Assembly (NCBI GenBank): GCA_964493885.1
Contig: CAZBPV010000001.1
Coordinates: 66,189 to 95,719, forward strand
DNA from: Candidatus Woesearchaeota archaeon
GTDB taxonomy: Archaea; Nanobdellota; Nanobdellia; Pacearchaeales; GW2011-AR1
Length of the DNA: 29,531 bases
Direction of reading: 5' to 3'
How positions within the stretch are numbered: position 1 is the first letter of the stretch; every line of letters begins with the position of its first letter. A program made the position numbers and the translations under genes. The notes under the pieces were generated by a model. It was not told the DNA's origin. It was given only the letters and a program-made list of their open reading frames with translations, and searched no databases. Of the stretch, positions 2,196 through 29,531 are shown piece by piece.

Positions 2196-2250
2196 CTTTT
2201 CGTATATAAAATAATTAAACTCTATTTATAAAGTTTATTCTAATCAATTA

Positions 2251-3090
2251 TTATCTAAATGATTTGCTGATATTTGTTCCCCAGAATGAAGGAAGTGGGT
2301 TAGAAACAAATCCATTGAAATCTCCAGAGAAAATATGAGTTAATCCTGGCTCATCTTTGAATTCTTCAAAATGCTCTGAAGCATCATCATATATTTTTTG
2401 TATTATTTTTCTTTCAAAATTCTTCTGAAGCAAGGAACTTGGCTTTAAAATTAAAAAATCTGCCTGCCTTAGTATATTAATATCTAGATTAGAAGAATTC
2501 TGTGAAATAAATAAAATTGTAAGATTTTTATGTCTGGCAATTAATATTAAGTCACTAAGCAATTTATTTGCATTGCTCATAGAATCCCTAGAATTAAATA
2601 AAATTCCACCCTCATCTATCAGTATTATAGAATTATTTCCTATTTCTTCTATTGTATTAACAACTGTAATCCAATTAGGCATTTCATCTGGATTAAATCC
2701 CATTGCATAGCACTTCTTTTTTGTTTTTGCACGGGAATTCTCTAAAAACTTCATACCAAATGCAGTCTTTCCTGTTCCTCTTGCCCCAATAATAACCCCA
2801 ATCTTTGAATCAGACTTATTTACTCCTTCTTCCCACTGAAGATAATTACCTTCTTTAGTATGAACAATCTTGAAGTTTTCATAAAAAGGAATCATTTGCT
2901 CTCTTTTTTGCTTAACTTGTTTTTTCCTTGAACTTTCCTCAACTTTGTCAGCAGTATATTTAGTTGCCTTGTAAATTCCCTTACCAATATAATACGGAGT
3001 TTTCATAAGAAACCATAACCCTTTTCCAATTGTTCCTAAAGCAGAGCCTTTATTTTCTTGTTTTTTCTTGCTCACTTTCTTCTTTGCCAT
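2251..3090 (-). CDS. Small P-loop NTPase, FtsK/HerA/Zot-like by motif pattern
   Basis: 279-aa ORF with an ATG start. Walker A is GARGTGKT and Walker B is SIILIDEGG. These are followed by ARHKNLTILFISQNSSNLDINILRQADFLILKP, which resembles the GRK..Q segment of HerA/FtsK-type ATPases. The N-terminus is Lys-rich. Confidence 0.6.
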   Translation of the reverse strand: MAKKKVSKKKQENKGSALGTIGKGLWFLMKTPYYIGKGIYKATKYTADKVEESSRKKQVKQKREQMIPFYENFKIVHTKEGNYLQWEEGVNKSDSKIGVIIGARGTGKTAFGMKFLENSRAKTKKKCYAMGFNPDEMPNWITVVNTIEEIGNNSIILIDEGGILFNSRDSMSNANKLLSDLILIARHKNLTILFISQNSSNLDINILRQADFLILKPSSLLQKNFERKIIQKIYDDASEHFEEFKDEPGLTHIFSGDFNGFVSNPLPSFWGTNISKSFR

Positions 3091-6305: not shown

Positions 6306-6830
6306 ATGATACAAAATTATAGCAGATATAGGATTTTGCAGGAGTTCTTTAACAATCCTTTGAAAGATTTTCAGATTCGTGAGCTTTCCAGAATAGCAGA
6401 ATTAGCTCAACCCTCTGTTACAAACCATCTAAATGCTTTGCTCAAGGAAAACCTAATCCTTAAGGAGAAAAAAGGGATTTACCCTACATTTAGGGCAAAT
6501 AGAGAAGATGAGATGTTTAAATTTTATAAGAAAATGGACACTCTCTTAAGGTTAAAGCAAACTGGAGTTTTGGAATATATTTATGATTCATGCATGCCTG
6601 ATTCAATAATCTTATTTGGTTCTGCATCAAAAGGAGAAGATATTGCAGAAAGTGATATAGATATATTTGTTCAATCTCCAGATAAAAAACTCTCGCTTGA
6701 AAAGTATGAAAAGGCACTCAATAGAAAGATTACTCTGTTCTTTGAAGGGAATTTCTCAAGACTTAGTAAGGAACTGAAAAACAACATATTAAATGGGATA
6801 ATCATTAGAGGATATCTAAAAGTATTCTAA
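6306..6830 (+). CDS. Winged-HTH plus minimal nucleotidyltransferase (MNT-type) protein
   Basis: The N-terminal segment FQIRELSRIAELAQPSVTNHLNALLKENLI resembles an ArsR-like wHTH. The NTase signature is FGSASKGEDIAESDIDIFV (GS..DxD). The stop lies 1 nt before the next gene. Confidence 0.8.
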   Translation: MIQNYSRYRILQEFFNNPLKDFQIRELSRIAELAQPSVTNHLNALLKENLILKEKKGIYPTFRANREDEMFKFYKKMDTLLRLKQTGVLEYIYDSCMPDSIILFGSASKGEDIAESDIDIFVQSPDKKLSLEKYEKALNRKITLFFEGNFSRLSKELKNNILNGIIIRGYLKVF

Positions 6831-6831
6831 A

Positions 6832-7230
6832 ATGGATTTAATAAAAATAACTCCAGACAAGGAAAGGGCAAGGAGCATAATAAATATGGTTTCTTTAGTT
6901 GAAGAGAGAATAAAACTTCAGGATAAACAGAGAATGTCTGCACTTATAATCGCAGATTATTATGAGATAATAAAAGAGCTCATCACAGCAGTTCTTTTGA
7001 TTGATGGATATAAAACTTTAAGTCACAAGGATTTAATTGATTATTTAAAGGAAAATTATTCTGAATTCAACTTGCAAGAAGTATCAATTCTGGATAATTT
7101 AAGAATTCTGAGAAATAGAATAACCTATGAAGGATTTCTTGTTGAACCCATTTATCTTGATAGAAATGAAACTATTTTCAAGCAACTAATTAGTAAGCTA
7201 AAAAAATTAATTTCTCAGAAATTAAAGTAG
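6832..7230 (+). CDS. HEPN-domain-like partner of the nucleotidyltransferase
   Basis: 132-aa all-helical ORF packed directly against the MNT gene (TAAAATG junction), which is the usual MNT-HEPN arrangement. The motif region reads LRNRITYEG, so the canonical Rx4-6H histidine is absent. Confidence 0.55.
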   Translation: MDLIKITPDKERARSIINMVSLVEERIKLQDKQRMSALIIADYYEIIKELITAVLLIDGYKTLSHKDLIDYLKENYSEFNLQEVSILDNLRILRNRITYEGFLVEPIYLDRNETIFKQLISKLKKLISQKLK

Positions 7231-11538: not shown

Positions 11539-12465
11539 TTATCTCTTTTTTCTCTTTTGTAGTCCCCCTTTGATTTCTTTTTTATACTGCTTTACTAAAA
11601 ATTCTAACATTGGTTTTATATCATGAAATTGAGAGTAAACTTGAAGCGCTTTGTAGTATCTCTGCCTATCTTCTAGATAAATATTAATTGGAGGATAGTT
11701 ATTCCTAATTAAAATATAATTTAATAACAATCTTCCGACTCTTCCATTGCCATCTTGAAAAGGGTGTATATGTTCAAATTGATTGTGCATTATTGTAGCC
11801 AATATTAAAGGATTAAATTTAGCCTTGTTTTCTTTATACCAAACAACTAATTCATTTAACGCATTATTTAGTTTATTTATAGGAGTTCCAATATGAATTA
11901 TTTCTCCATACGAGTTCTTTATAACTACCTGAACACCCCTAAACTTACCGGCAAATGATTTGGATTTCTCAAAACATAACTTATGCAGTTTAAGAAGAAA
12001 ATCAAGATTAATTTGCTCATTGGTATCTCGAATAAATTTTATTGCCCCTGCAACTCCCAAGGTTTCAAGCTCTTCCGCATCATTGGTTTTTGGTTTATCT
12101 TTTAATATTTCTTTAACTTCATTTAGTTCTACAGTTGAACCCTCAATTGCATTTGTGTTATAGACAAATTCCTCTGTAAATTTCTTCCAATCAGTGTTAT
12201 ACAAGTGAATTACATTAATTTCAGAGATTTTATTTAATCTTTCAATTTCTTTTGGAGTAAGCTCAAAATCAAAAACCTTTGTGTTATTTGCGTTTATTTG
12301 CTCAAGAATAAACTCTTTTGTATCTTCCTTTCTTTTTATTAATTCATTCTCAGATAAATCAACCCCGAGATACTTTCTAATTTTCTTAACCTTGCCCTTT
12401 TCTCTATAAGAGTGAGCAAGATAATACTTTACCTTCTTGCCTTCTTTTTTTTGTTCAATAAACAT
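11539..12465 (-). CDS. fic: Fic-domain protein (putative AMP-transferase) with an internal inhibitory motif
   Basis: Canonical Fic motif HPFQDGNGRVGR. An upstream (S/T)xxxE(G/N) inhibitory-helix motif is present as TNAIEG. 308 aa with an ATG start. Confidence 0.9.
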   Translation of the reverse strand: MFIEQKKEGKKVKYYLAHSYREKGKVKKIRKYLGVDLSENELIKRKEDTKEFILEQINANNTKVFDFELTPKEIERLNKISEINVIHLYNTDWKKFTEEFVYNTNAIEGSTVELNEVKEILKDKPKTNDAEELETLGVAGAIKFIRDTNEQINLDFLLKLHKLCFEKSKSFAGKFRGVQVVIKNSYGEIIHIGTPINKLNNALNELVVWYKENKAKFNPLILATIMHNQFEHIHPFQDGNGRVGRLLLNYILIRNNYPPINIYLEDRQRYYKALQVYSQFHDIKPMLEFLVKQYKKEIKGGLQKRKKR

Positions 12466-14228: not shown

Positions 14229-14352
14229 TGAGCCTACACGGATTTGAACCGTGGACCCCCGCCTCTCTTAGACTTCTCTAAAAGATTCAGCAACCCTAAT
14301 GAATTGCAGTCATATAAGAGCGGTGCTCTAAACCAGGCTGAGCTATAGGCTC
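14229..14352 (-). tRNA. tRNA-Ile (anticodon UAU) with a 48-nt intron at the canonical 37/38 position. Exons 14313-14352 and 14229-14264; intron 14265-14312.
   Basis: Manual fold: acceptor GAGCCTA/TAGGCTC, D stem GCTC/GAGC, anticodon stem CCGCT/GGCGG, loop C-U-UAU-A-A after splicing, T arm CACGG-TTCAAAT-CCGTG. The intron forms an exact hBHBh' motif. The 4-bp helix is CTTA(32-35):TAAG(intron 43-46). It is flanked by the 3-nt bulges T36-A37-i1 and i47-i48-A38, each containing a splice site. The outer helix is GACT(i2-5):AGTC(i39-42). Confidence 0.85.
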
Positions 14353-15439: not shown

Positions 15440-16180
15440 TTAAACACTAATTTTTGCCTCTTCCCAAAGAATTTCAAAGTATCTTTTGTATGCATTTGCA
15501 ATTGCTTGATTTTCTATTGTAATAGTAAATATAGGCTCTTCCCAAAAATTTAAAAGAACAATATTTCCGCATATTAAAGTGGTGATTGTTGTATCAAAAA
15601 AAGAAGGAAGGTATCTTGCTTCAGTATATTCTAAATTATTAAGGTATTTTATTCTTTTATCTGCATTTTTATTATAAATATGCTTCATAATTATTTTTTT
15701 AGATATTCTTATCTTATGAAAATCTTCAATAAACCCTCCAATAACATCACTTACATCTTTTGGAATCCCATATACATAAATTATTTCATTTTTTTCCAGC
15801 AAGTTATTAAGAATTACCCTAAATGATTTAATTCCTTCAGACATTGTTACCCTTCTTTTTTCACTTGACTTAGTGTGGATTTTTTCTATTTCTGGAATAA
15901 TATTTTTTAAGTCATATTCTTTTTGTTTAAGATAATTTAATAGATTATTTGGAGTAATAGGATAAAATATTTTTCTATTGTCTTCAATGCTTTGACTCAC
16001 AATTCCCTTTTTTATCATTTTATCAAGTGTATCATAAACATTTGGACGATGAATTTTAGTTCTATTTGCAATCTCGTGAGCAGAAGAATGCCCTGCCCTG
16101 ATTAAATCAAGATAAATGATTATTTCATTTTTATGCAATCCGATTGATTCCAGTGTTTCTATTATTTTTTGTTCATCCAT
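15440..16180 (-). CDS. TrmB-family transcriptional regulator
   Basis: N-terminal TrmB wHTH pattern LESIGLHKNEIIIYLDLIRAGHSSAHEIANRTKIHRPNVYDTLDKMIKKGIV, followed by a C-terminal effector-type domain. The start overlaps the upstream gene's stop by 8 nt. Confidence 0.85.
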   Translation of the reverse strand: MDEQKIIETLESIGLHKNEIIIYLDLIRAGHSSAHEIANRTKIHRPNVYDTLDKMIKKGIVSQSIEDNRKIFYPITPNNLLNYLKQKEYDLKNIIPEIEKIHTKSSEKRRVTMSEGIKSFRVILNNLLEKNEIIYVYGIPKDVSDVIGGFIEDFHKIRISKKIIMKHIYNKNADKRIKYLNNLEYTEARYLPSFFDTTITTLICGNIVLLNFWEEPIFTITIENQAIANAYKRYFEILWEEAKISV

Positions 16181-17153
16181 TTTGTTTTAGGAATTTTTTT
16201 ACTAAATTTAGTTGTCTTTTAGAATATTTATCTTTTTGCTTTTTTGCTCTTTCTTTTTCCCAGTCATCTAGTTCTGGAATTTCTGCTGCTTTTACTTTTA
16301 TACTCTGTTTAGTATAATCTAATTTAACTGGATGAGCAGTGAAATAATCTCCATTATATATACTCCAACAGGATCTTGTTCTCTGTCTTTTATTTGATAT
16401 GTCTTCTGTTAATTCATGAAAACCAAAAATAGCTTCCATATTTCCTAGAGATTTAAATGGCTCAGCAGTATATTTTTTGCAGTCTCTTGCCCATCTTGCT
16501 TGCTTTGCTGTGACTTTATCTCTAAAATGCTGATATTCTGGCAGAGGTTTTCCATCTATTTTTGCACTAGAGAATAAAAAGAGAGGATCCTTCTGGGCTC
16601 CTAAAACATCCATCTGAACTTTGTTTTCTTGTAATCTAATTCCAAGTGCATCTGCTAAGAATTTACTATGTTGTATTCCCCTAGTTTGATTGGCTACATT
16701 TCCAATTAATTGATCTACTGGGATTCCTGTTTGACGTGCAAGTTCTAAAAGGTATTCTACAGGAGTTGAGCCCATTATAACTAATCCTTGATAATTTCGT
16801 GCTATTTCTTGTAATATAGGATATATTTTTTCTGCTTGTTCTAAAAATTCTTTTGCATCTGACTTAAAGCTTATTGGACGTTCTTGAGTTGATGTTGCAA
16901 TAAGAAGCATGTTTGGAGATTGTTTTAAGACCCCATCTAGAGTTTTATGTGTAACAAAATCTTCTTTATTATATCTTCCAAGCACACATCCCATATTTTT
17001 GTAAGTTTCTTGGAGTCTTTTTTCTTTACTTCTAGCATAAAATGGGCTGTATGCATCTACTCTTCCAAGAGATTTATTATCAGAATCAATGCAGTGCAAT
17101 CCTAAAAATCCTAATCCAATCACCCCTAGTGTTGGTAGATTGTCTTGTTCCAT
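16173..17153 (-). CDS. Divergent LDH/MDH-fold Rossmann protein with catalytic residues replaced (probable non-catalytic paralog)
   Basis: 326 aa with GxGxxG as VIGLGFLG. Landmarks aligned by eye to L-LDH/MDH are STPVE (for TNPVD), GIPVDQLIG, NQTRG (Asp168 to Gln) and LGAQKD (His195 to Gln). It is a paralog of the next gene. Confidence 0.55.
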   Translation of the reverse strand: MEQDNLPTLGVIGLGFLGLHCIDSDNKSLGRVDAYSPFYARSKEKRLQETYKNMGCVLGRYNKEDFVTHKTLDGVLKQSPNMLLIATSTQERPISFKSDAKEFLEQAEKIYPILQEIARNYQGLVIMGSTPVEYLLELARQTGIPVDQLIGNVANQTRGIQHSKFLADALGIRLQENKVQMDVLGAQKDPLFLFSSAKIDGKPLPEYQHFRDKVTAKQARWARDCKKYTAEPFKSLGNMEAIFGFHELTEDISNKRQRTRSCWSIYNGDYFTAHPVKLDYTKQSIKVKAAEIPELDDWEKERAKKQKDKYSKRQLNLVKKFLKQNG

Positions 17154-17162
17154 TTTTATTAA

Positions 17163-18599
17163 TTATCTTTGCCAATTTTCTGTTTGACTTATTATTGCTC
17201 TTAAATCTGTATTTAATCCATTTGGTCCTAGAAGTATTTCTTTATTTTCTGTTAAATCTGTAATTTTGCATATTCCTTTGACTTTTACATCCACTCTTCC
17301 ATTTCCGTCTCTAGAATCTTCAAGAACAAATTCTGCTGGAACACTTAGTAATCCTGCATAAATAGGGTATCTTGAATATCTTTGTAAATTTGAAATATCT
17401 TCTAGACACTCTTTTACTCTTTGAGGAACTCCTCTGTAATCATGCTGATATTTATTAGCAGATTGCACAACTGCTAAACCTACTTTTTGCGCTTTTGTAC
17501 AAATTTCTTTTTGCAATTCTTCTTTTTTTAATTGAGGAAATGTTTCAAACAACGGCACGAATACATTATTTACTCTAACAAAAGATTCTGCATAAAGAGG
17601 AACTCCTCCTTTCATGTGATCCCCGATTGCTATTGTAAGAACATCTTCTTCTTTTATTGCAGGATTAAATTCTTTTAATTTTTCATATAATTCTGCTCTA
17701 TGCCTTATAGTATCTGGTGGGAAAGAAGTAAGCTGTTCTCTAGGAATTCCTAATCTTGTTGCATATTTAATAAAATGTCCATTTGGATTAGATTGTATCG
17801 CAATTAATCCAGGATAATTATTAGCAATTGCTGCCAATAAAACCGGCTCTATTTTTGGAAGCCCGGTTTTAAATAACATTTCTGTTAATTCTGTTCTTTC
17901 ATTAAAAGCATCATAATCAATTCCATGTTTTCCAGTTGTAATTAATAAAACATCTGGTTTTTCTTGAATTAATGCTTCAAGATTAGTTCCGTGAGTAATT
18001 ATCTTTTCTCTTTGCTCACCTGTTAAATCTAATCCTGTTAGTAAGGGAGAGTAATCCCCGTTTACAAATTGAGTATAAACATGAGCAGCCTGAATATTAT
18101 TGCTTCTTGCAGCTTTTTCAAGAATTCCTAATCCTAGTGTGCCTAATCCTACAATACCTATGCTTAGTGGCTGAAATAATTTTCCTTCTTTTCTTAATTC
18201 ACAAACCTTCCTAATAACTTCCCCCTCATCAAAATTTTCGTCATGGTTTTTTGGAAGCCATCCAGAAAATTGCTCATATCCAGGTTCAGTCATTGTATCT
18301 TTATAAGGTTCTTTATTTTGAGTCGTAAGAATTTTTCCTCCTTTTATCCCTTTTTCAGCCAAAACTTTTGCCATCTTAGAGGCTAGTTGCCTATTGTTTG
18401 GGTCTTCATGAACAAAATACATATGTCCCCTTAATAATCTAGAATTGCTACGTAATGCTTCTGGATGAATTACATCATCAACAGTAACTATATCAAAATT
18501 TATACCAGAATCTTCTTTAACTTTTCCTTTAAGTATTCTTTTTAGATTCTCTTTTCCTGCTTGAGTTTCATTTATTATTATTACTTGAGGCTTTCTCAT
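17163..18599 (-). CDS. LDH/MDH-fold 2-hydroxyacid-dehydrogenase-like protein with an N-terminal extension of ~150 aa and unknown family
   Basis: 478 aa. Residues from about 155 to the end carry IVGLGTLG (GxGxxG), LLITTGK....ERTEL (Arg109 region), QSNPNG (TNPVD), GIPREQL, DTIRHR (Asp168/Arg171) and IGDHMKG (His195). The N-terminal part alternates strand and helix: QVIIIN, FDIVTV, HMYFVHEDPNNRQLASKMAKVLAEKGI. Confidence 0.6.
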   Translation of the reverse strand: MRKPQVIIINETQAGKENLKRILKGKVKEDSGINFDIVTVDDVIHPEALRSNSRLLRGHMYFVHEDPNNRQLASKMAKVLAEKGIKGGKILTTQNKEPYKDTMTEPGYEQFSGWLPKNHDENFDEGEVIRKVCELRKEGKLFQPLSIGIVGLGTLGLGILEKAARSNNIQAAHVYTQFVNGDYSPLLTGLDLTGEQREKIITHGTNLEALIQEKPDVLLITTGKHGIDYDAFNERTELTEMLFKTGLPKIEPVLLAAIANNYPGLIAIQSNPNGHFIKYATRLGIPREQLTSFPPDTIRHRAELYEKLKEFNPAIKEEDVLTIAIGDHMKGGVPLYAESFVRVNNVFVPLFETFPQLKKEELQKEICTKAQKVGLAVVQSANKYQHDYRGVPQRVKECLEDISNLQRYSRYPIYAGLLSVPAEFVLEDSRDGNGRVDVKVKGICKITDLTENKEILLGPNGLNTDLRAIISQTENWQR

Positions 18600-19900: not shown

Positions 19901-20713
19901 CTAAAAGTTTATTTTTAATCCAACTCTTCCGGTTACTTCATCTTTAACATTGCTATTACTATCTGCAAAATTATGGCCGTATGTTGCACCTGCTGTAAGA
20001 CTGGCTTTATCATTAAATTTATATTCTGCTTGAAGTCCTACTTCTAAACTAATTATATTCTCTTTTTTTGAATCATTAACATCATAACCGCCTACTCTTC
20101 CTGTAATTTTGTTATCCTCTAGTGTTAAGGCTGGACCTCCACTTACATTTAACGTAAATTTGTCTCCTGGAATAAAATCATATCCTGCTCCAAGTCTTAA
20201 TTTTGTTGCTTTGCTTTTTAAGTCAAGATAGCCATTTGAAGTAGTTTCACTTTCATCCATTTCACCATACTCTGCTCCAGCATAAAATTCACTTCTTCTG
20301 TCCTTTGCCCCTACTTTTACTCCCATAACTGGCATTGGGTTTGGATTATCTTCACTATTTAATGCAAATTTCATCCCAAAGTAAGGTTCTGCATATGCTT
20401 TCCATTCAGCGGATTCAGTTTGAATTTGTCTTTGACTTAATCTGTTTTCAGAATTTGATGTTTTGTTTAATTGAGCAGTTTCTGAAATTGGATATTTTGG
20501 AGATTCTTGAATAAGAGTTTTAGTTTCTTCTTTTCTTTCAAGTTTATTATCTTTCCACTCATACCCAATTGGAGGTTGAACTGTTCCTACAGACATTGTT
20601 CTTTGAGATGGGATTGTTGGGGTTTCTGTTTTATGACAAGATGTAGTTGTTACACTACCTAATCCAAACAATCCTACTATTCCTAATTTTGCTAAAAGTC
20701 CTAATTTTGCCAT
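19901..20713 (-). CDS. Exported protein with an N-terminal hydrophobic anchor plus Cys and a C-terminal ~165-aa beta-barrel-like domain ending in Phe
   Basis: The N-terminus is MAKLGLLAKLGIVGLFGLGSVTTTSC. The C-terminal domain has alternating hydrophobic beta-strand patterns (KLRLGAGYDF, FTLNVSGGPALTL, ISLEVGLQAEYKF, ASLTAGATYGHNF, VTGRVGLKINF*). It is about 55% identical by eye to the C-terminus of the upstream gene product. Confidence 0.6.
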   Translation of the reverse strand: MAKLGLLAKLGIVGLFGLGSVTTTSCHKTETPTIPSQRTMSVGTVQPPIGYEWKDNKLERKEETKTLIQESPKYPISETAQLNKTSNSENRLSQRQIQTESAEWKAYAEPYFGMKFALNSEDNPNPMPVMGVKVGAKDRRSEFYAGAEYGEMDESETTSNGYLDLKSKATKLRLGAGYDFIPGDKFTLNVSGGPALTLEDNKITGRVGGYDVNDSKKENIISLEVGLQAEYKFNDKASLTAGATYGHNFADSNSNVKDEVTGRVGLKINF

Positions 20714-20714
20714 T

Positions 20715-22781
20715 TTAGAATTTTACAGTAACTCCTGCTCTTGCTGTTAAGTCATCGGTTACATTAGAATTATCATCTGCAAAGTTATGTCCATATACTG
20801 CACCTGCTGTAAGGCTTACTCTATTATTTAATCTGTACTCTAAACCTGCTCCAACTTCTGCTCCAAATATTGTTTCTTTTTTAGAATCATCAACATCATA
20901 GTCCCTTACTCTTCCAGTGATTTTATTTTCTTCTCTTGTTACTCTTAAACCAGCTGAAACATTTCCAACTAATTTTCTTTCTTTATTTGAGCTTAATTTT
21001 CCTCCAACCATGAATGTTGTTGCAGTGCTTTTTAAATCAAGATATCCTTCTGGAGTTGTTTCATTTGCATCCATTTCCCCTCTTTCAATTCCTAAGTAAA
21101 TTGAGCCATTTTCCTTTTCTACTCCAATTTCAACACCAAAAACAGGCATTGGGTCTGGAGTATCTTCTGAACTTAATGCATATTTCATTCCTGCATAAGG
21201 AGCTATCTTTAAAGTGTATGGATTTGGAGCTCTTAGAGGCAATGGATTTCTTGGTTGTTCTACAGGTTTTTGGGTTGATTTCCCAGAAGCAGGAGCTAGT
21301 TGTATTGGAGTTTTTTGAAATTCTGGAGCTGGTTGAATTGGATTATAAATAATTGGTTCTGGTTTAACCTTTTCAACTACTGCAGACTCTTTGTAATCAT
21401 CTGTAAGTTCTTGATAATCTTTTCTAAGAGTTTCAACCTCTTTTCTTAACTTTTCTGTATTATCAATATTTATTGATACCACCTTAGTTAATAGTCTTAT
21501 ATCTTCTCTATTTCTTATTATTCCTTTATCCGCCATATCTCCAATATCTTTTGGTTTTTCTGGTTCTTTATAATCCTCAACAACATCCTTAGGTTCTTTA
21601 ACTGGATCTACTCCAGGTTCTAATTTAACTTCTTTAACTGGCTTTGGTTCTGAGATTACAACAATTTCTTCTAGTTGATTTATATTTGTTCTTTCTTCTT
21701 TTACTTGAACTGCTGTGTATTCAGGTTGAACTGCAGTTTTTAGGGATTTAACTTCTTCATTAGGAAAAAGACTATATGTTATTATCCCAGCTAATCCAAT
21801 TCCTGCTCCAACAAGGCCCCATTTGAATCTTTTCTTAGGGTCATTCCATATATATTTTATTGTTGTTATTGGATTTTTTAAAGATTCTATGACTTTGCTT
21901 GCTAAACTGGGTTTTTTGAATTCTCTGGCGTGATGTTTTGGTTTAAGGGGGTCAAATCCAGATTTATTAGGGACAGCATTACGAGGGAGTCCAACTTCAT
22001 CTGTTAAATCATCACCAAAGATTTCCTGTCTTGTTACTGATATTCCTGGAATAATAATTCCATAGTTGTTTTTTAATACACTATCAATATTCCTTATTGC
22101 CTCTTCTTTTGATTGTGAATTCATTCGATTTACTTCATTAAATACTTTTACTACTTCAGTTTCTATAGGCACAATAGAACCGTCTCCTTTTTTTTCAAAT
22201 AATTCTGATTGGTGGTATTGTGATGTTGGAGATGCATGAGCTCTTATCATTCTTTCTGTTACCATATTGAGGAGGTTCATACATTCGTTTGGAGGCATTA
22301 TAGGTCTTGGATTATTAATAACAACCTTTTTTTTATTTAACCCCTTATTCTTAAGATACTCTCTTGCTCTTTTTTTTAGACTTTTACCCATTAGTTCTGT
22401 TATGTCTTCTCTACTCTGTGGTGTTGCCCTAATCACATCTTCCTCAACTTGTTGAAACACTACTCTTTGACCTTCCTCATTTAATTCTCCCCATAATGCT
22501 CTCTTTTGTTGATATAATGCTTCAATATTTAAGTCCACCCTTTGAGTAATAGTTGTATTTTTCAAATTTTTTGCAAAAACAATTGGATTATTTTGGGCCA
22601 TCTCCCACATAATGTTTTTTGTCATTGCTTCTGCATAAAGTTTTTCTGAATACTTTTCAAAATATTCTTCACCAGGCCTGATTTCTTCTTGGTTTGGGTT
22701 TTGAGGTGTTTGGGTATCCATTTTAGTATTAATCACAGTATCTGTAGCATGTTCCCCATGAACAGATTTGTATGCAGTCAT
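20715..22781 (-). CDS. Bitopic membrane protein: cytoplasmic N-domain, one TM helix, a Pro/Glu/Lys-rich and coiled-coil linker, then a C-terminal beta-barrel-like domain
   Basis: The TM helix is WGLVGAGIGLAGIITYSLF. The linker contains EPKPVKEVKLEPGVDPVKEPKDVVEDYKEPEKPKD. The C-terminus reads ...VSLTAGAVYGHNFADDNSNVTDDLTARAGVTVKF*. An alternative start at 22721 (MDTQTPQ) would remove the 53-nt overlap with the upstream gene. Confidence 0.6.
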   Translation of the reverse strand: MTAYKSVHGEHATDTVINTKMDTQTPQNPNQEEIRPGEEYFEKYSEKLYAEAMTKNIMWEMAQNNPIVFAKNLKNTTITQRVDLNIEALYQQKRALWGELNEEGQRVVFQQVEEDVIRATPQSREDITELMGKSLKKRAREYLKNKGLNKKKVVINNPRPIMPPNECMNLLNMVTERMIRAHASPTSQYHQSELFEKKGDGSIVPIETEVVKVFNEVNRMNSQSKEEAIRNIDSVLKNNYGIIIPGISVTRQEIFGDDLTDEVGLPRNAVPNKSGFDPLKPKHHAREFKKPSLASKVIESLKNPITTIKYIWNDPKKRFKWGLVGAGIGLAGIITYSLFPNEEVKSLKTAVQPEYTAVQVKEERTNINQLEEIVVISEPKPVKEVKLEPGVDPVKEPKDVVEDYKEPEKPKDIGDMADKGIIRNREDIRLLTKVVSINIDNTEKLRKEVETLRKDYQELTDDYKESAVVEKVKPEPIIYNPIQPAPEFQKTPIQLAPASGKSTQKPVEQPRNPLPLRAPNPYTLKIAPYAGMKYALSSEDTPDPMPVFGVEIGVEKENGSIYLGIERGEMDANETTPEGYLDLKSTATTFMVGGKLSSNKERKLVGNVSAGLRVTREENKITGRVRDYDVDDSKKETIFGAEVGAGLEYRLNNRVSLTAGAVYGHNFADDNSNVTDDLTARAGVTVKF

Positions 22782-23583
22782 CCATTAAGTGATTTACTGT
22801 GAGAGTGAAACTTGCTGTTTCCCCATTTGCATCCAGAACCACATTTTCAACACCATACCAGTTTGCTTCAAGATTACTTATTACTAAATCATTTCCTGAA
22901 ATAGAAAGGTCAAAATGAGTGTGTGTTGAACTAACTGTAATAGTTACTGTATCATCAGGGTCAACTGCTTCTATTGTAATATTAGCATAAGCTATTGTTC
23001 CATCAACTGAATCTTCATCAACATTTTGATTAGAAAGTGAATTCCATACAAGAGCGTCATCTACTGGGTTTACTGTTACTAATACATCTTGAGAGTCTGT
23101 GTTTCCATCAGTATCTTCAACAGTGAATGTAACACTCTCAACACCATTCCAGTCTACAGGAGCACTGAAAATTACTTCATGAGTATCATTATCTATAATA
23201 ATAGTGATGTTTGAGTTTCCAGAAACACTCCATATAAGTTCAGATAAAGCATCATAATCATCTTCTGCATAATTATCTAAGTCAAGTGAATCATGAATAG
23301 TATCTTCCTCAAAGTAAATGTTTGGAAGTCCTAGTATTCTAAGTTCAACATCTTCATCAACAGCATTATCTTCACTCTTTCCATCCCCACTATAGATGTT
23401 TATAATATTTTGACCTGGAGTTCCAGAGTCTGCAAACCCTGCTAAAGGGTCTATTAAATTCTCAACATGAGCTTTGTTTTTTATTTGGTTTAGAAGAATA
23501 AAAGATAAAGCTAAAATTATAATTACTAATGCAATTAATGCGATTAACATAGACATTACCACAATTTTCCTTTGTTTTTCCAT
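22729..23583 (-). CDS. Signal-anchored surface protein with two Ig/cadherin-like repeats and a Cys-rich C-terminus
   Basis: The track start at 23601 is a TTG. The ATG at 23583 (MEKQRKIVV..) lies 23-32 nt downstream of a tatttaaatc box. The TM helix is MSMLIALIALVIIILALSFILL. The repeats have the pattern F.EDT...LDL..Y..D.D...L.WSV....N..I.....H...F.AP.DWNG.E...F.V.D..G......V.V.VNPVDD. The protein ends CIQICSWGTCYRYCD. Confidence 0.65.
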   Translation of the reverse strand: MEKQRKIVVMSMLIALIALVIIILALSFILLNQIKNKAHVENLIDPLAGFADSGTPGQNIINIYSGDGKSEDNAVDEDVELRILGLPNIYFEEDTIHDSLDLDNYAEDDYDALSELIWSVSGNSNITIIIDNDTHEVIFSAPVDWNGVESVTFTVEDTDGNTDSQDVLVTVNPVDDALVWNSLSNQNVDEDSVDGTIAYANITIEAVDPDDTVTITVSSTHTHFDLSISGNDLVISNLEANWYGVENVVLDANGETASFTLTVNHLMDDCIQICSWGTCYRYCD

Positions 23584-24318
23584 GTTATTTTTTAAAGGCA
23601 ATTAGTATTTAAATCTTTCTATTTTGTAACTACTATATAGTTAAGATTGCTTAGAGTTTGAATTAAAAAAGATTATATAAAGTTTGTTTAATTGTTTTTC
23701 TTATGGATATTTCCACTGCTGAAAGTGATATCTATTCTTGATAGATAGAATTATTAGTTTCTCATGGTTTAAAAATAGATGAATCAAAGCATCCTTTAGC
23801 ACCAGATACAAGAATTGGGATTTCAATTGACAAAGAATTGGTTTGTTTGAGGTACTCTCCAAGAAGTTATTTTTTTTGGAGTAAATTCTTTACAAATTCC
23901 TTTTTTATATGCCTTTTTACCAGAAATCAAATATGTTTTAAGCCCAGATTCAAGAGAAACTTTTTGAAGTGAATTGGAGTTTCTTCTTAATTCTCCTTTA
24001 TCTAAAAAACCTGGGCAGTTTGAATCTTTTTTTACCTTGCCTATTCAAGTCTTGCACAATTCAATGAGCTTTGAAGAAAAAAATTATAATGGAATCTCTG
24101 TAAATACTCCAATCAAACAAAAAAAATTAACTATAAAATCTTTGGATTGCTGGAGAAAAGATATTTTTATCCCATTTTGCAAGTTTTTAGGAGAGAGTTT
24201 TGACAATTATTTTGTGAAAAAAACTAGGTAGTGTAACACTTTTTTCATTAAATTCTGGATAATAACATTTAAAAAGATATTTTACTATTTTTATTTTATA
24301 AAAAAGGGAAATTGTTGA

Positions 24319-27300
24319 ATGGTTTTTAAGAGGTATATCAAAAGAGGTAACAAAGTTTACGGTCCTTATATTTATCATAATGTGAAACATAATGGAAAAG
24401 TTGTTTCTACTTATCTTGGCAGGCATAAACCTGAAGAAGAAAATAATTCTCTATCTATAAACAAAGGTAGTGTAATAAAAAAGGAGGGGAAGTTAACTAC
24501 AAATTTCCCTTATAAAAAACTTCTCCTCTTTTTATTTATTTCAGTTGTTGCAGTTGCTTTTTTGTTTTTATTAGTTAGATTTGATTTTGGTTTGACTGGT
24601 AGTGCAACTCTTTCAATTGATGATATTTATAGAGATGGAGATTTTCTTAAAGGAGATTTGCAGTTTATTTTACATCAGTCAGAACTAATGCCTGCAAATA
24701 CACAAGTGATAATAAATAGTGCTGGTTTTGAATATATTTATAATTTAAGTGATTTGATTTCTGAAACTCCTGTAGAAGGAGAGTATTATCTTAAAAACAC
24801 AGAAATTTCCGGAAGTGGATTAGGTTACTCTGCAGATGCAGAAAGATTTCCAATTGTTAATTTTGTTTTGGGAATTTTTGCTGCTGCAGAAGATGACAGC
24901 GGAAAAACTTATACTCTTCCTGTTGAACCAATAAATGAAACAGAAGAGGAAAATGAAACACTTCCTGCAGAAGAAAATCCAACTGAAGAAAGTTCTGAAA
25001 ACCAGACTCCAGAAGAGCCAGTTATTGAAAATGAAACTCCAACCCGAACAATAACAGGGCAATTTACTTCTTTAATTTCTGGATTTCTTGGAATCTTTCC
25101 AAGGCTTGTAGGACATGCTTCTTTAGAATTAGTTGATGAAATAGAAGGAAATGTTAGTGCAAATTCTTCTTTTGAATATCCTCTTTCAAGTGAAGAGACT
25201 GCACAGATTATTTCCTCTGAACATAATATTAGTTTAATAATTGAAAATAATCAAGCAATTGTCACAACTGAGTATATAGGAGATGAAATCAAAACACTTG
25301 AAATAAGTATAGATGACTTAAATATTTCTGCTGCAGATGGAGACTTAGTTATTAGTTTTGTTTATAACAATGCTGAGCTAATGACTGCAAGCAAAGAAAT
25401 AACTATTGTTAGTGAAACTAGCAATGAAACTAATGAAACTCTTTATACTCTTCCCTTTGAGCCACTGATACCTGAAGAAATTCCTATAGAACAACTAGAA
25501 AATGTTACTGGAAATGAATCTATAAAAGGAATTAATATTAATTTAGTTGATGGAGGGGGGAATAGAATAGGTAACTATACTATTATTAATAGGGAAGATT
25601 CAAAATTGGATGTTTTAATAAATAATGTTAAGATAAATGGGACAAGAGAGATATTTTCAAACACACCTTTAATTGATATTTCTATTTCTGGTGTTAAGAA
25701 TGTTAGTAAAAATGTTACTATGATGTTAAACGAGGTAAATGATTCTATTCTTAGAACAGCAGTTTTAGCATCTGAGCCTTTTGAAGTAGATAATGTTACT
25801 ATTACTCTAGCTAAGAAAGGAAATGTTAATGTGATTATGAAGTGTGAGAAATTTAGTGTTGAGAATCTAACTTGTACTAATTGGAGTAGAATAGATATAC
25901 CTTTTGTAGATAATGGGGAGAGTATAACTTTTACAGTTACAGAGTTTAGTGGTTATGCTGGTGGGGAGATAGGAATAATCAATGTTCAGTCATATCCTGT
26001 TGTGGGAGGTAATTGGACTGTTGAATTTAATACCACCGGAGTAGAGAACTTAACAATCACTGCTGTTGATGATACTACTTGGAGTAATGAGACAGAAGAT
26101 GAAGATTTGAAATTTTTAGAGATTAGATGTGGAAGTGAGACTCTAGAGTATGAATGGGTTAATAATTCAGTGTTTATTGAGGATTATAATTGTTCTGAGA
26201 ATGGTTATGAAATTAGCAAAGTTATTACTTATGGAAAACACCATTTAAGATTTGATTATGGAAATGATACTGCTTATGCACATAATAATGCTGGTTATGT
26301 TTGGCAGTCTGTTGAATATGGGACTCTTGGGGGTCCTAGTGCTTGGAATTTTATTATGGGGTATAAGTTTAAGCCAATTGAAAATGGACAAATATCTGAA
26401 CTATGTGGTTATTTTAATGGAACAAAGACTATAAAAATCTGGAATGCTACTAGGTCTGAATTAGCATCAGCATCTGTTACTTCTTTAGGAGGAAATCCAC
26501 TTGGTAGTTGGATGTGTACTCCAATAACTCCACTTAGTGTTATAGCAGGAACTGAGTATTATGTTGGTGTTTGCTTAGTTGGAAGTGGGGGTTATTATCG
26601 AGAACTTTCACCAACCTTGTTGCCTATCGCTTCTAATGGTGTTAATATTACTTACAGCTTTTATTATAGTACAACAGGGTGTACTTTTGCAGGTGATCCA
26701 ACTCCAGATACTAATTATATGTATGGCATGGCGGATATTTATTTTAATGCGACTGCAACTCCAATACAGTCTGCTACAATATATGCAGAGGATGTTACTT
26801 ATGGGACTTGTTATTTTAATCCCACCACCACCAAAGCTGATAATTATATTGCTGCTGATTTTGATACTTATAGGGGGGCTGCTAAATTTAATATTAGCTC
26901 TTTGCCAGCAGATGCCATTATAACAAAAGTAGAATTTTACGCTGCACCTTATTCCTGCTCAGCTAATCATGATTTAGATGTATTTGATCTTATAAATGAT
27001 CCAGTTACTACTACTGGAAGCGGTGTTCTTTGGAATGATGCTAGAGATGGTACACAGTATGTTGTTGATAGTTATGCTTTAAGAACTCCTGCAACAGGAG
27101 GAACTTGCGTTGCAGCAACTTATGGAGGAGTATATTTGGGAGTGGATGCAGCAGCAGATTTACAGAGTAGAATTTCTTCTCCTGGTTGGTTTGCACTTGG
27201 TTTTAGTGCTAATAGTACAGCATATGGTTATTGGTATGGACATACTACAGCTTATGAGCCATATATTAAGGTTGAATATACCCTTCCTCCCAATTTATGT

Positions 27301-29531
27301 GGAGAGACTATCACAGAAAGTACTGAGTTGGAGGGGGATATGAGTTGTACTGGAGATGGTTTAATTATAGGAGCGGATAATATTACAATAGACTGCGATG
27401 GGCACTGGATAAATAACAGTGCTGCTAATGAAGTTGGAATAAATATTTCTAGCAAAAGCAATATCACAATTAAAAATTGTAATATCAAAAAGTATGAAAA
27501 TGGTATATATGTTACAAATTCAACAAACATCAATATAACAAATACATCATTTACAGGACAAGAAGGAGTTGGCATAGTTTTTTACGCTAATTTTTCAACA
27601 ATTGATAATTATAGGATTGTTCTTCCTGCACCTGTAAGAGGAATTCTTGTTAATGGAATTAATAATACATTAAATAATATTTATGCTGATTCTGATACAG
27701 TTGGAAATAATTATCTTATCTCATTTGCAGCTAGCAACAGCACGATAAATAATTCAAGAATCACAAACTGCGTTTATGATGGTAATACAATAAATGTTGG
27801 TGGTACAGGAAATATAATAAATAATGTCACTGTGTTTAATACCTCAGCTCTAAGTTCAACTGAGATTGTATCTTCATCATCAAAAAATGGTAGTATAACA
27901 AACAATAATTTTTCATCAAATGGAAATTATGCTCTTCGTTTGAGTTCTGCGAATTATAGTGTTATCTCAAACAATATAATAAGTAATAATAAAAACTATG
28001 GAGTGTATATTTCAGGAAGCAATTATAGCAATTTTACACAAAACACAATAACTAATAACACTAATTATGGAATTTATATTGTGGGCAGTCCAAGTCCTGC
28101 TTCAAATAATAATTTATTTTATAATAATTTTTTCAATAATACAAATAATATTTTTGATGCAGCTTCAAATACCAACAATTGGAATACAACAAAAACATCT
28201 GGAACAAATATAATTAGTGGAAGTTATATTGGTGGAAATTATTGGAGTGATTATAATGGAAGTGATCCAAATTTTGATGGAATTGGAGATACTGAGATTC
28301 CATGGAAAGGAACATCTTCTATAACAAATGGCGGAGATTACTTGCCTTTGACTTATACTTGTGGAGTTACTATTACCCAAAACCTCACATTAACAGAAGA
28401 TATGAGTTGTACTGGGACTGCATTAATTATAGGAGCAGATAATATAACTCTGGATTGTGATGGACATTCTATAACCGGAACTAGCACAGGGAATGGAATT
28501 TCTAATAATGGATATGATAATATTACTATAAAAAACTGTAATATATCTAATTTTAGTACTGGGATAATCTTAACTAATGCGGTTTATAATAATACTATTT
28601 TTAATAATACTTTAAGAAATATGGGTAGCTATGGTGTTAGTCTCTATGTTGGAGGATCAGTTAATGTTTCAAATAATATTTCATCTAATTCTTTTAATAA
28701 TTCTGCTGCATCCATATACCTATCAATAGCATATGGAAATGTTATTAAAAATAATAATATTTCAAATACAGGAATCTATGATGGGATTACCCTTTCAGCT
28801 AGTAATTATAATAATGTAACTAATAATACAATACAAAATGTTCAAGGAGATAGGGGGATTTTTAATACTAATTCAAATTATACTTTGATTAGTGGAAATA
28901 CCTTAAGAAATTGCACAGGAGATTATGGAGGAATTGTATTTTATGGTTATAGTAATAAAGTTACAGTTAAGAATAACATACTAATAGATAATACCTATGG
29001 GTTATATAATTCTCTACAAGCTTCAAATAATTTGATTATCTATAATAATCTCTTTGATAATACCAATCAAGTTAGTGTTTCAGGTACTGGAAATGTTTGG
29101 AATACAACTTATAATTGCACATCTGGAACAAATATAATAGGAGAGCCTTGTATAGGTGGAAATTATTGGGAGGATTATGATGGAAGTGATGATGGAAGTG
29201 GAAGTTATCCTTATAATATTTCAATGGATGGAATTGGAGATACTAACATTCCTTATAATGTAAGTATAACAACTGGAGGAGATTATTTGCCATTATCTAA
29301 AATATGTGGAAGAAATATAACTGAAAATACTAATATAGATAAAAATATATTTTGTAACACAACTGCTCTTCTTATCAATGCAGATAATGTTATATTAGAT
29401 TGTGCAAATTTCTGGATAAATGGTTCAGACCCAGACCCTTCAGCGAATTTGGTATATGGTGTTTATGCTTACAACGCTACAAATATCACTATAAAGAATT
29501 GTAATGTTGCGAATTGGAGAAATTTTGGAAT
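24319..29531 (+). CDS. Giant membrane-anchored surface protein with tandem right-handed parallel beta-helix (NosD/PbH1-like) modules. It runs off the right edge (at least 1737 aa) and is missing from the supplied ORF track.
   Basis: The ATG at 24319 is immediately preceded by an in-frame TGA. I read all 1737 codons to 29531 and found no stop. Elements in order are: the basic N-terminus MVFKRYIKRGNKVYGPYIYHNVKHNGKVVSTYLG; a TM helix at 24520-24576; an acidic ETEEENETLPAEENPTEESSENQTPEEP linker; Ig-like segments; and a DUF4082-like segment (MGYKFKPIENGQISELCGYFNGTKTIKIWNA...GTEYYVGV). These are followed by at least 3 modules that each start CGxxITE..L..DMSCTG..LIIGADNIT.DCDGH and end GGNYW.DY.GSD...DGIGDT.IP......GGDYLPL. 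N-x-S/T sequons are extremely dense. Confidence 0.85.
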   Translation, partial: MVFKRYIKRGNKVYGPYIYHNVKHNGKVVSTYLGRHKPEEENNSLSINKGSVIKKEGKLTTNFPYKKLLLFLFISVVAVAFLFLLVRFDFGLTGSATLSIDDIYRDGDFLKGDLQFILHQSELMPANTQVIINSAGFEYIYNLSDLISETPVEGEYYLKNTEISGSGLGYSADAERFPIVNFVLGIFAAAEDDSGKTYTLPVEPINETEEENETLPAEENPTEESSENQTPEEPVIENETPTRTITGQFTSLISGFLGIFPRLVGHASLELVDEIEGNVSANSSFEYPLSSEETAQIISSEHNISLIIENNQAIVTTEYIGDEIKTLEISIDDLNISAADGDLVISFVYNNAELMTASKEITIVSETSNETNETLYTLPFEPLIPEEIPIEQLENVTGNESIKGININLVDGGGNRIGNYTIINREDSKLDVLINNVKINGTREIFSNTPLIDISISGVKNVSKNVTMMLNEVNDSILRTAVLASEPFEVDNVTITLAKKGNVNVIMKCEKFSVENLTCTNWSRIDIPFVDNGESITFTVTEFSGYAGGEIGIINVQSYPVVGGNWTVEFNTTGVENLTITAVDDTTWSNETEDEDLKFLEIRCGSETLEYEWVNNSVFIEDYNCSENGYEISKVITYGKHHLRFDYGNDTAYAHNNAGYVWQSVEYGTLGGPSAWNFIMGYKFKPIENGQISELCGYFNGTKTIKIWNATRSELASASVTSLGGNPLGSWMCTPITPLSVIAGTEYYVGVCLVGSGGYYRELSPTLLPIASNGVNITYSFYYSTTGCTFAGDPTPDTNYMYGMADIYFNATATPIQSATIYAEDVTYGTCYFNPTTTKADNYIAADFDTYRGAAKFNISSLPADAIITKVEFYAAPYSCSANHDLDVFDLINDPVTTTGSGVLWNDARDGTQYVVDSYALRTPATGGTCVAATYGGVYLGVDAAADLQSRISSPGWFALGFSANSTAYGYWYGHTTAYEPYIKVEYTLPPNLCGETITESTELEGDMSCTGDGLIIGADNITIDCDGHWINNSAANEVGINISSKSNITIKNCNIKKYENGIYVTNSTNINITNTSFTGQEGVGIVFYANFSTIDNYRIVLPAPVRGILVNGINNTLNNIYADSDTVGNNYLISFAASNSTINNSRITNCVYDGNTINVGGTGNIINNVTVFNTSALSSTEIVSSSSKNGSITNNNFSSNGNYALRLSSANYSVISNNIISNNKNYGVYISGSNYSNFTQNTITNNTNYGIYIVGSPSPASNNNLFYNNFFNNTNNIFDAASNTNNWNTTKTSGTNIISGSYIGGNYWSDYNGSDPNFDGIGDTEIPWKGTSSITNGGDYLPLTYTCGVTITQNLTLTEDMSCTGTALIIGADNITLDCDGHSITGTSTGNGISNNGYDNITIKNCNISNFSTGIILTNAVYNNTIFNNTLRNMGSYGVSLYVGGSVNVSNNISSNSFNNSAASIYLSIAYGNVIKNNNISNTGIYDGITLSASNYNNVTNNTIQNVQGDRGIFNTNSNYTLISGNTLRNCTGDYGGIVFYGYSNKVTVKNNILIDNTYGLYNSLQASNNLIIYNNLFDNTNQVSVSGTGNVWNTTYNCTSGTNIIGEPCIGGNYWEDYDGSDDGSGSYPYNISMDGIGDTNIPYNVSITTGGDYLPLSKICGRNITENTNIDKNIFCNTTALLINADNVILDCANFWINGSDPDPSANLVYGVYAYNATNITIKNCNVANWRNFG
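27298..29531 (+). repeat. Intragenic tandem modules of the giant protein (27298-28369, 28370-29304, 29305 to beyond 29531)
   Basis: The module starts share nucleotide-level identity, for example gatatgagttgtactgg and ttaattataggagc.gataatat. The module ends share ggtggaaattattgg...gatggaattggagatact. Confidence 0.8.

Follow-up and report, generated by a model that had tools for sequence, protein, structure and literature searches.

The subject of this report is a cassette of three genes within a 29,531-nt (29.5-kb) stretch of DNA read from the genome of a Candidatus Woesearchaeota archaeon (contig CAZBPV010000001.1); we refer to the whole stretch as the window. Two of the three encoded proteins end in a shared domain of the kind that forms eight-stranded β-barrels in bacterial outer-membrane proteins (OMPs). 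An earlier note on this DNA, made without database searches, had described three tightly packed minus-strand genes, and the open reading frame (ORF) listing of the window contains all three, close-packed between positions 19901 and 23601 (Table 1). Gene 3 starts 1 nt past the stop of gene 2, and genes 2 and 1 overlap only when their longest ORFs (20715-22781 and 22729-23601) are taken. The listed ORF of gene 1 opens at a TTG (23601); alignment with homologues places its probable start at M7 (position 23583), and the same kind of alignment makes M21 (position 22721) the probable start of gene 2.

Gene 1 encodes an immunoglobulin (Ig)-like surface protein. The earlier note had called it a signal-anchored protein with Ig/cadherin repeats, which agrees with its N-terminal signal-anchor, its Pfam matches (Big_9, 1.4e-9; Cadherin_5, weak), and its match to the NCBIfam tandem-95 repeat. 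A gene 1 homologue with an identical C-terminal Cys motif adjoins the barrel genes at loci L006, L007, L009, L012, and L020 (loci are given by L numbers and members of the barrel family by P numbers). This four-cysteine ending, DDCxxxCSxxxCYxxCD, is found in every Ig-domain partner and is kept where the remaining protein diverges; it could form disulfides or bind metal.

Gene 2 encodes the long barrel protein. Its description as a bitopic protein with a single transmembrane helix, a Pro/Glu/Lys-rich and coiled-coil stalk, and a C-terminal domain of ~165 aa is supported by the sequence and by the segments that AlphaFold2 (AF2) predicts. Homologues have a clear hydrophobic segment at the position aligned to the transmembrane helix, and we predict an N-in orientation because basic residues lie on the N-terminal side of that helix. 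The cytoplasmic region has no Pfam or NCBIfam match; the full-length AF2 model (mean predicted local distance difference test score [pLDDT], 48) gives helices at low confidence there and no confident fold.

Gene 3 encodes the short barrel protein, which the note had taken to be simply exported. The shared domain is present, but the N-terminus is a lipobox-like signal peptide with a cysteine at position 26 rather than a plain export signal. It has n- and h-regions, and the +1 Cys, which is invariant, follows small residues at −1 and −2 (...GSVTTTSC26 in the window); in the homologue alignment, M1 to C26 are nearly invariant and the subsequent linker is variable. The lipobox −3 position is frequently not L, V, or I, and variants among relatives include LGAGC, GVGCA, AASC, AGGC, AGSC, FSGC, ASGC, ALGC, IVGC, and GSGC. 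A lipid anchor on the gene 3 lipobox Cys is plausible, because lipobox proteins of Haloferax have been shown to undergo AliA-dependent thioether lipidation and the presence of AliA has been reported for DPANN archaea (PMC12462473).

Table 1. Positions of the cassette genes, their parts, and related features (window numbering, unless a locus is named)
Feature	Location	Strand	Remarks
Gene 3, 270 aa	19901-20713	-	ORF listing
Gene 3, lipoprotein-type signal peptide MAKLGLLAKLGIVGLFGLGSVTTTSC, invariant Cys26	20636..20713	-	homologue alignment
Gene 3, polar linker, ~80 aa, poorly conserved	20399..20635	-	between lipobox Cys and barrel
Gene 3, C-terminal 8-stranded OMP-type barrel, aa 106-270, ends RVGLKINF	19904..20398	-	PF13505, 33.4 bits; AF2; Foldseek
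Gene 2, 688 aa as longest ORF	20715-22781	-	ORF listing
Gene 2, N-terminal cytoplasmic region, ~300-320 aa	21828..22781	-	helical, poorly conserved, length variable among homologues
Gene 2, single transmembrane helix, ~aa 319-341, KKRFKWGLVGAGIGLAGIITYSLF	21759..21827	-	sequence; AF2 helix 324-338
Gene 2, extracellular stalk, ~180 aa	21219..21758	-	Pro/Glu/Lys-rich; helical/coiled-coil segments aa 353-377 and 425-470 (AF2)
Gene 2, PVEQP motif	aa 506-510, nt 21252-21266	-	stalk, upstream of barrel
Gene 2, C-terminal 8-stranded OMP-type barrel, aa 522-688, ends RAGVTVKF	20718..21218	-	PF13505, 29.2 bits
Gene 1, Ig-like (Big_9/tandem-95) surface protein, Cys-rich C-terminus DDCIQICSWGTCYRYCD	22729..23583	-	signal-anchored; conserved partner of barrel genes
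Gene 1, four-Cys motif at C-terminus	22729-22779	-	window
Giant surface protein, >1737 aa, extends past window end	24319..29529	+	divergent from cassette; NosD, 4e-61; Beta_helix, 6e-26
Ig-domain partner genes	L006 6027-7163; L007 13874-14737; L009 10071-11231; L012 10138-11283; L020 12784-13947		four-Cys motif endings

The shared C-terminal domain

The C-terminal domains of genes 2 and 3, each of ~165 aa, align without gaps over 161 aa at 55% identity (BLASTP E value, 4e-56), the same figure that the note had estimated by eye. Both pass the gathering cutoff (28.7 bits) of the Pfam family PF13505 (OMP_b-brl), at 33.4 bits for gene 3 and 29.2 bits for gene 2, and the gene 2 alignment reaches the last position of the model. 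The gene 3 barrel also passes the cutoff for DUF481 (36 bits versus 21.1). Sub-threshold Pfam matches are nearly all to membrane-barrel families (Autotransporter, Opacity, Porin_4, TonB_dep_Rec_b-barrel, and OMP_b-brl_2). The endings GLKINF (gene 3) and GVTVKF (gene 2) are as the note gave them; extended by two residues, to RVGLKINF and RAGVTVKF, they fit the β-signal of OMPs (polar-x-G-x-x-hydrophobic-x-aromatic). A C-terminal F is present in 24 of 30 family members, and ~19 of the 30 carry the full eight-residue pattern.

An AF2 model of the gene 3 domain, built from a five-sequence alignment, is a simple meander of eight strands with a mean pLDDT of 90 and a predicted template modeling (TM) score of 0.79. 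The strands span domain residues 2-16, 23-34, 37-54, 57-77, 82-103, 106-128, 133-144, and 152-165. Thus, the eight or nine short strands proposed in the note are eight, and they are long rather than short, at 12 to 23 residues. The gene 2 barrel was predicted again within the poor full-length model, with a pLDDT of ~80-90. Short turns (RR, PGDK, FNDK) lie on the side of the barrel that holds the termini, and two long hairpins, β3-β4 and β5-β6, reach past the hydrophobic belt with polar residues on both of their faces, a feature shared with OmpX and Ail. When we searched the PDB with the gene 3 model using Foldseek, 56 matches had E values below 1e-3, and the best 50 of these 56 were all bacterial outer-membrane barrels; they were led by OmpA (E value, 4e-9; TM-scores, 0.73/0.70), NspA (0.65/0.69), OmpX (0.62/0.68), Ail, OprF, and OmpW.

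Strand polarity across 19 family members is that of a membrane barrel. One face is 61% aliphatic, 21% aromatic, 3% charged, and 6% Gly (81% apolar in sum), and the opposite face has 33% charged, 25% polar, and 24% Gly residues; such enrichment in Gly is common inside small barrels, where space is tight. The apolar runs comprise four to seven alternate residues per strand, with aromatics at both ends. The note had left room for a soluble β-sandwich with a hydrophobic core, and this inside-out polarity, together with the membrane barrels that lead the Foldseek matches, argues against it. Its preferred identification, a bacterial-type eight-stranded OMP barrel with a terminal aromatic β-signal, has held up: two PF13505 matches above threshold, the AF2 model, the Foldseek matches, and the dyad pattern of the strands all agree with it. 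Homology, predicted fold, and polarity together support the identification of the shared domain as a barrel of the OmpA/OmpX/NspA type.

Sequence similarity to individual solved barrels is slight. A sequence search of the PDB gave no significant match (best E values, 0.2-0.3, to FapF and a TonB-dependent receptor); hhalign comparison of the family profile with single, approximate NspA and OmpX sequences gave probabilities of 55% and 4%, respectively; and NCBIfam holds no model that matches either barrel protein.

Archaeal setting, family architecture, and evolution of the cassette

The contig is archaeal and comes from a DPANN lineage of the Woesearchaeota/Pacearchaeota type, as the note had supposed. 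GC content is even throughout the window (0.28-0.35). A tRNA at 14229-14352 (minus strand; Rfam, 52.6 bits; not reported by ARAGORN) is interrupted by a 49-nt intron immediately past the anticodon loop, where archaeal and eukaryal tRNA introns canonically lie. Its anticodon loop reads CU-UAU-A, and this suggests a tRNA-Ile(UAU), an unusual archaeal means of decoding AUA that has been reported for Nanoarchaeum and Korarchaeum. The convergent neighbor of the cassette encodes a YGR210-type, YchF-related GTPase; nearly all of the best 80 GTDB loci for this GTPase, which are at most 89% identical to it, are labeled Nanoarchaeota, Woesearchaeota, or Pacearchaeota archaeon. Two carry bacterial labels at 74-75% identity (L028, DAIQOR010000002.1, "bacterium"; L057, DATJPO010000024.1, "Candidatus Omnitrophota bacterium") and are probably mis-binned or mislabeled DPANN contigs. 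Genes for TrmB, an Lhr-type helicase, and a VRR-NUC protein in the window agree with an archaeal origin, and a distant family member, P0022, adjoins the genes for ribosomal protein L15e and eIF-1A. Pfam found no Omp85, POTRA, or other outer-membrane biogenesis families among the window ORFs, in keeping with the note's remark that no β-barrel assembly machinery (BAM) was in sight.

The barrel family is small. An exhaustive hidden Markov model (HMM) search of 1.84 billion protein representatives yielded 23 at an E value of ≤1e-3, 10 of them at ≤1e-10, whereas word-indexed searches (with a single sequence and with 6- and 19-sequence profiles) gave just four or five close relatives. A scan of GTDB with family-specific motifs returned no match, and the cassette was reached there through its GTPase neighbor and a custom HMM. 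All genomic contexts examined for family members are DPANN. The only clearly bacterial-looking OMP is P0031, with a marginal E value of 4.6e-4, which argues for a small, distinct family and against recent import.

About 30 members share one plan: an anchor, either a lipobox Cys or an N-in transmembrane helix, is followed by a linker of 5-210 aa and a C-terminal barrel. In none does a cleavable Sec signal peptide directly precede a released barrel; the barrel always lies C-terminal, behind the anchor. In the lipobox form (~18 of 30), the Cys comes immediately after the N-terminal hydrophobic segment and the linker runs from 5 to ~155 aa; in the bitopic form (~9 of 30), a cytoplasmic region of variable length precedes the transmembrane helix, and the linker of 150-210 aa contains predicted long helices and Pro-rich stretches. 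A helical stalk followed by a barrel also occurs in P0010, P0011, P0013, P0022, P0025, and the long form at L006. At the short extreme is P0014 (L007/L087, 6175-6744), a short form in which ~5 residues separate the lipobox Cys from the first strand; its long partner is a 701-aa protein whose barrel is too divergent for detection with Pfam. In this family, a fold that was already known appears in a domain of life new to it, within a new and constant fusion architecture.

A further observation concerns the linkers. The exact pentapeptide PVEQP stands 17-35 residues upstream of the barrel in six otherwise divergent members (the long protein of the window, P0013, P0017, P0020, P0030, and the long form at L006), lipobox and bitopic forms alike. 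It may be a processing, docking, or recognition motif.

The whole cassette (Ig-domain, long barrel, and short barrel genes), convergent to the GTPase gene, adjoins TrmB in at least nine independent assemblies from different studies. It is found at L001, L004, L006, L007/L087/L088, L009, L012, and L020, and in part at L008; on the short contig of P0012, the barrel pair is followed by a convergent gene. Assemblies that bear the cassette include JBFYLU01, CAZBJC01, CAZYKW01, CAZRQO01, CBDUAR01, and CAYLHY01. Its presence is vertical and restricted to one clade: every locus whose GTPase is at least 81% identical to that of the window, and which has enough flanking sequence, carries the cassette, and it is absent from the GTPase position in ~50 loci of more distant relatives that have 3 kb or more of flanking DNA. 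Short-form barrels are 70% identical to the short forms of other genomes versus 55% to their own long paralogue, which points to an old duplication of which both copies have been kept.

Barrel identity is decoupled from GTPase identity: compared with the window, L001 has 89% (GTPase) and 70% (barrel), L006 has 89% and 27%, and L007 has 85% and 33%. These values suggest diversifying selection on the barrels or replacement of the cassette. Exposed proteins that take part in interactions typically show such fast divergence or replacement.

Divergent from the cassette lies the giant surface protein gene listed in Table 1, whose product has four NosD/right-handed β-helix blocks; giant ORFs occupy the equivalent position at L001 (1208 aa) and L087 (1016 aa), and so this divergent neighbor is conserved. 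A second giant surface gene is found at the other end of the window (3-2225, minus strand, extending past the window); it encodes >741 aa with a signal peptide and a weak Big_13 Ig-like match. Two adjacent minus-strand genes (16173-17153 and 17163-18599) encode proteins of 326 and 478 aa with Rossmann-like GxGxxG motifs (GVIGLGFLG and GIVGLGTLGLG) and no Pfam or NCBIfam match; a counterpart of the 478-aa protein, 458-499 aa long, lies between the GTPase and TrmB genes at L001, L004, and L087. Possible accessory or mobile-type genes encode a Zot-like P-loop ATPase (2251-3090, minus strand; weak match) and a Fic/DOC-domain protein (11539-12465, minus strand), and a gene for a protein with helix-turn-helix and nucleotidyltransferase domains, followed by a small ORF (6306-7230, plus strand), may form a toxin-antitoxin-like pair.

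Possible role of the barrels

The reading that we favor, with moderate confidence, is that the barrels are lipid-embedded distal anchors that tether the cytoplasmic membrane to a second lipid layer; we infer both the embedding in lipid and the bilayer that is targeted. The long protein would be fixed in the cytoplasmic membrane by its N-in transmembrane helix, with the cytoplasmic tail inside, and the short protein by its lipobox Cys, presumably through a thioether-linked lipid. Each would present an OmpA/OmpX/NspA-type transmembrane barrel at the distal tip of its linker or coiled-coil stalk. Burial of the hydrophobic belt in the second layer would staple the cytoplasmic membrane to it, and the polar β3-β4 and β5-β6 hairpins would stick out on the far side, like those of OmpX and Ail. 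Because the predicted interior is packed with Gly and charged residues, as in OmpA, the barrel would act as an anchor and not as a pore. The Ig-domain protein and the giant β-helix protein are probably adhesive partners. Assembly would take place without BAM, either spontaneously or with the help of some other factor that reads the conserved C-terminal β-signal.

As for the second layer, we see two targets of about equal likelihood, and we put forward each of them only tentatively. It may be the membrane of a partner or host cell at a contact site, in which case the stalked barrel would be a self-inserting "harpoon"; the episymbiotic lifestyle of DPANN archaea, the adhesin-like neighbors, the fast evolution, and the patchy distribution favor this possibility. 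It may instead be the outer membrane, or a lipid-protein sheath, of the archaeon itself. A bacterial-like topology (termini toward the cell), the β-signal, and the uniform length of the long-form stalks speak for it, as do reports of archaeal double membranes; such membranes have been described in Ignicoccus, Altiarchaeum, Methanomassiliicoccus, and the DPANN ARMAN cells (PMC6098224, PMC8871954). On a stronger version, which we regard as doubtful, the clade is genuinely diderm, and its outer membrane is stapled by stalk proteins with transmembrane or lipid anchors through OMP-type barrels assembled without Omp85/BAM.

Several points weigh against a tether to a second layer. The outward orientation of the apolar face is deduced from homology, the C-terminal Phe at the end of the Pfam model, Gly enrichment, and residue parity rather than from model coordinates. 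In P0014, the ~5-residue spacer implies that anchor and barrel share one layer, so that nothing would be bridged. A 2014 survey detected no Omp85/BamA in archaea (PMC4104836), and Pfam found no Omp85 in the 29.5-kb window. The first membrane that a Sec-exported, unfolded, tethered barrel reached would be its own cytoplasmic membrane; if the archaeon had an outer membrane, it would need porins and lipid transport; and insertion into a host membrane would need charged hairpins to be moved across it without machinery. Restriction to a small clade argues against a fundamental envelope plan.

Alternatively, the barrels might fold back from the outside into their own cytoplasmic membrane, to act there as local membrane organizers or receptors, with the stalk as a spacer or oligomerization element. 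That membrane is the closest bilayer for a Sec-exported tethered barrel, the spacer of P0014 at L007 would force anchor and barrel into the same layer, and eight-stranded barrels with a charged and Gly-rich interior face should be closed and non-leaky. Nevertheless, we regard this as distinctly unlikely: the long forms retain helical, Pro-rich stalks of 150-210 aa that would be purposeless if the barrel returned to its base, the charged hairpins would end in the cytoplasm, and we know of no precedent for such fold-back. If true, these would be the first β-barrel integral proteins of a monoderm cytoplasmic membrane. The OMP fold might otherwise serve outside any bilayer, with its belt in a protein lattice (S-layer- or toga-like) or in oligomers, or as a carrier of scavenged lipids for lipid-auxotrophic DPANN cells. 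The paired paralogues are always co-encoded, weak precomputed matches to PF10895/DUF2715 exist for P0001 and P0002, some eight-stranded OMP families have been modeled as lipid-trapping radial oligomers (PMC12228718), and two reports describe the sheath of Thermotogae as β-barrel arrays held by a coiled-coil anchor protein (PMC3387000, PMC10160955). However, a belt that encircles the barrel over all eight strands, with 81% apolar and 3% charged residues, would be hard to bury completely in a soluble oligomer, and the best structural neighbors in Foldseek are monomeric membrane anchors; we consider this possibility unlikely as well. A soluble lipoprotein barrel of the fHbp/TbpB type was rejected on the basis of polarity and the Foldseek match list.

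Even less probable, in our view, is that the barrels are hydrophobic channels like OmpW or lipid-modifying enzymes like PagP or PagL. OmpW is among the Foldseek matches (TM-score, ~0.64-0.69), and the YGHNF-DDNSNV loop is well conserved in close relatives, but the best matches are OmpA, NspA, OmpX, and Ail; the interior is charged and Gly-rich like that of OmpA rather than lined with hydrophobic residues like that of OmpW; and His143 and the loop serines are not kept across the family, whose 19-sequence alignment has only the consensus GxNFxxDxxN. We therefore rejected an OmpW-like channel because of the charged interior and a PagL/PagP-type enzyme because His143, the candidate catalytic His, is confined to close relatives. 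An artifact, whether bacterial DNA mis-binned or chimeric in archaeal contigs or a recent, functionless horizontal acquisition, is scarcely credible. PF13505 proteins are overwhelmingly bacterial, and the bacterial labels on L028 and L057 (2 of the 80 GTPase loci) show that binning errors occur. Against this, at least nine independent assemblies show the cassette in one and the same syntenic position among archaeal genes; the window has uniform GC and an intron-bearing tRNA, and one relative lies beside L15e and eIF-1A; the nearest clearly bacterial-looking OMP is the marginal match P0031, and different genomes have kept both paralogues. We rejected bacterial contamination because of this synteny, the intron in the tRNA, and the L15e and eIF-1A neighbors.

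In the textbook view, transmembrane β-barrels of the OmpA/porin superfamily and the Omp85 machines that insert them are characteristic of bacterial outer membranes and of organelles with that ancestry. The present family is archaeal, vertically maintained, and fast-evolving. Its barrels retain the polarity of membrane barrels and the C-terminal signal but are permanently joined to anchors of the cytoplasmic membrane. In full-text literature searches, we came across no account of OMP-type barrels in Woesearchaeota, Pacearchaeota, or DPANN archaea; the sole related item is a brief statement that Altiarchaeales may have a distant relative of PopA (PMC12228718). If barrels do tether the membrane to a second layer, either target would be a first, and were the clade diderm, transmembrane β-barrels would be assembled in Archaea by self-insertion or by some other insertase that reads the C-terminal signal. 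The family thus opens questions about OMP barrel assembly without BAM in nature, a second membrane in uncultivated DPANN archaea, and ultra-small episymbionts that latch onto a partner membrane, and the small size of the barrel domains (~165 aa) lays them open to direct testing.

Comparison with known systems

The closest known class is that of the small outer-membrane barrels: the OmpA N-terminal domain, OmpX/Ail, NspA, and Opa (clan MBB: PF13505, PF01389, PF06316, PF02462). The archaeal domains share with them the PF13505 match, the eight-stranded meander, short turns on the side of the termini and long loops or hairpins opposite, a hydrophobic outside and a charged, Gly-rich inside, aromatic girdles, and the C-terminal Phe β-signal. 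They differ in their archaeal host, in which no BAM is known, and in that the barrel lies C-terminal behind a transmembrane or lipobox anchor and a stalk, whereas the bacterial barrels have a cleavable signal peptide; sequence similarity to solved OMPs is insignificant. Neisserial fHbp and TbpB, whose barrels are soluble and have a hydrophobic core, resemble the short form in having a lipobox Cys, a flexible linker, and an eight-stranded barrel; unlike them, the archaeal barrels have inverted polarity, and neither fHbp nor TbpB is among the best 50 of the 56 Foldseek matches.

The long form recalls TonB and TolA in that its N-in transmembrane helix leads into a segment rich in Pro-Glu and Pro-Lys (EPKPVKEVKLEPGVDPVKEPK...) and then a helical spacer, but it ends in a membrane barrel instead of a soluble docking domain, it has no ExbBD or TolQR genes nearby, and Pfam reveals no sequence similarity. 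The dominant protein of the Ignicoccus outer membrane, Ihomp1, is α-helical. The outer cellular membrane of Ignicoccus hospitalis shows that a second membrane is possible in Archaea (PMC7613921, PMC6098224). The Bdellovibrio OMP PopA, which is reported to enter the prey membrane (PMC12228718), offers a precedent for the placement of an OMP-type barrel in another cell's membrane. PopA differs in being a 16-stranded, pentameric, porin-like protein that is untethered and made in a diderm with BAM, and it has no sequence-level homology to the archaeal barrels.

In overall design, the nearest parallels are tethers. The barrels of OmpM and SlpA, from diderm Firmicutes and Deinococcus-Thermus, are much larger and serve as porins. 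Their proximal anchor is a wall-bound surface-layer homology (SLH) domain, for which the cassette proteins have no Pfam match; the latter are anchored in the cytoplasmic membrane, by a transmembrane helix or a lipid, and the two groups are unrelated in sequence. Thermotoga Omp-alpha, Lpp/OmpA, and TonB/TolA are looser functional analogues. What the archaeal proteins have in common with the OmpM/SlpA-type tethers, which likewise combine an anchor with a β-barrel (bioRxiv 10.1101/2023.08.14.552755, 10.1101/2021.05.31.446380), and with Thermotoga Omp-alpha is the order of their parts: a proximal anchor, an extended or coiled-coil stalk, and a distal membrane element.

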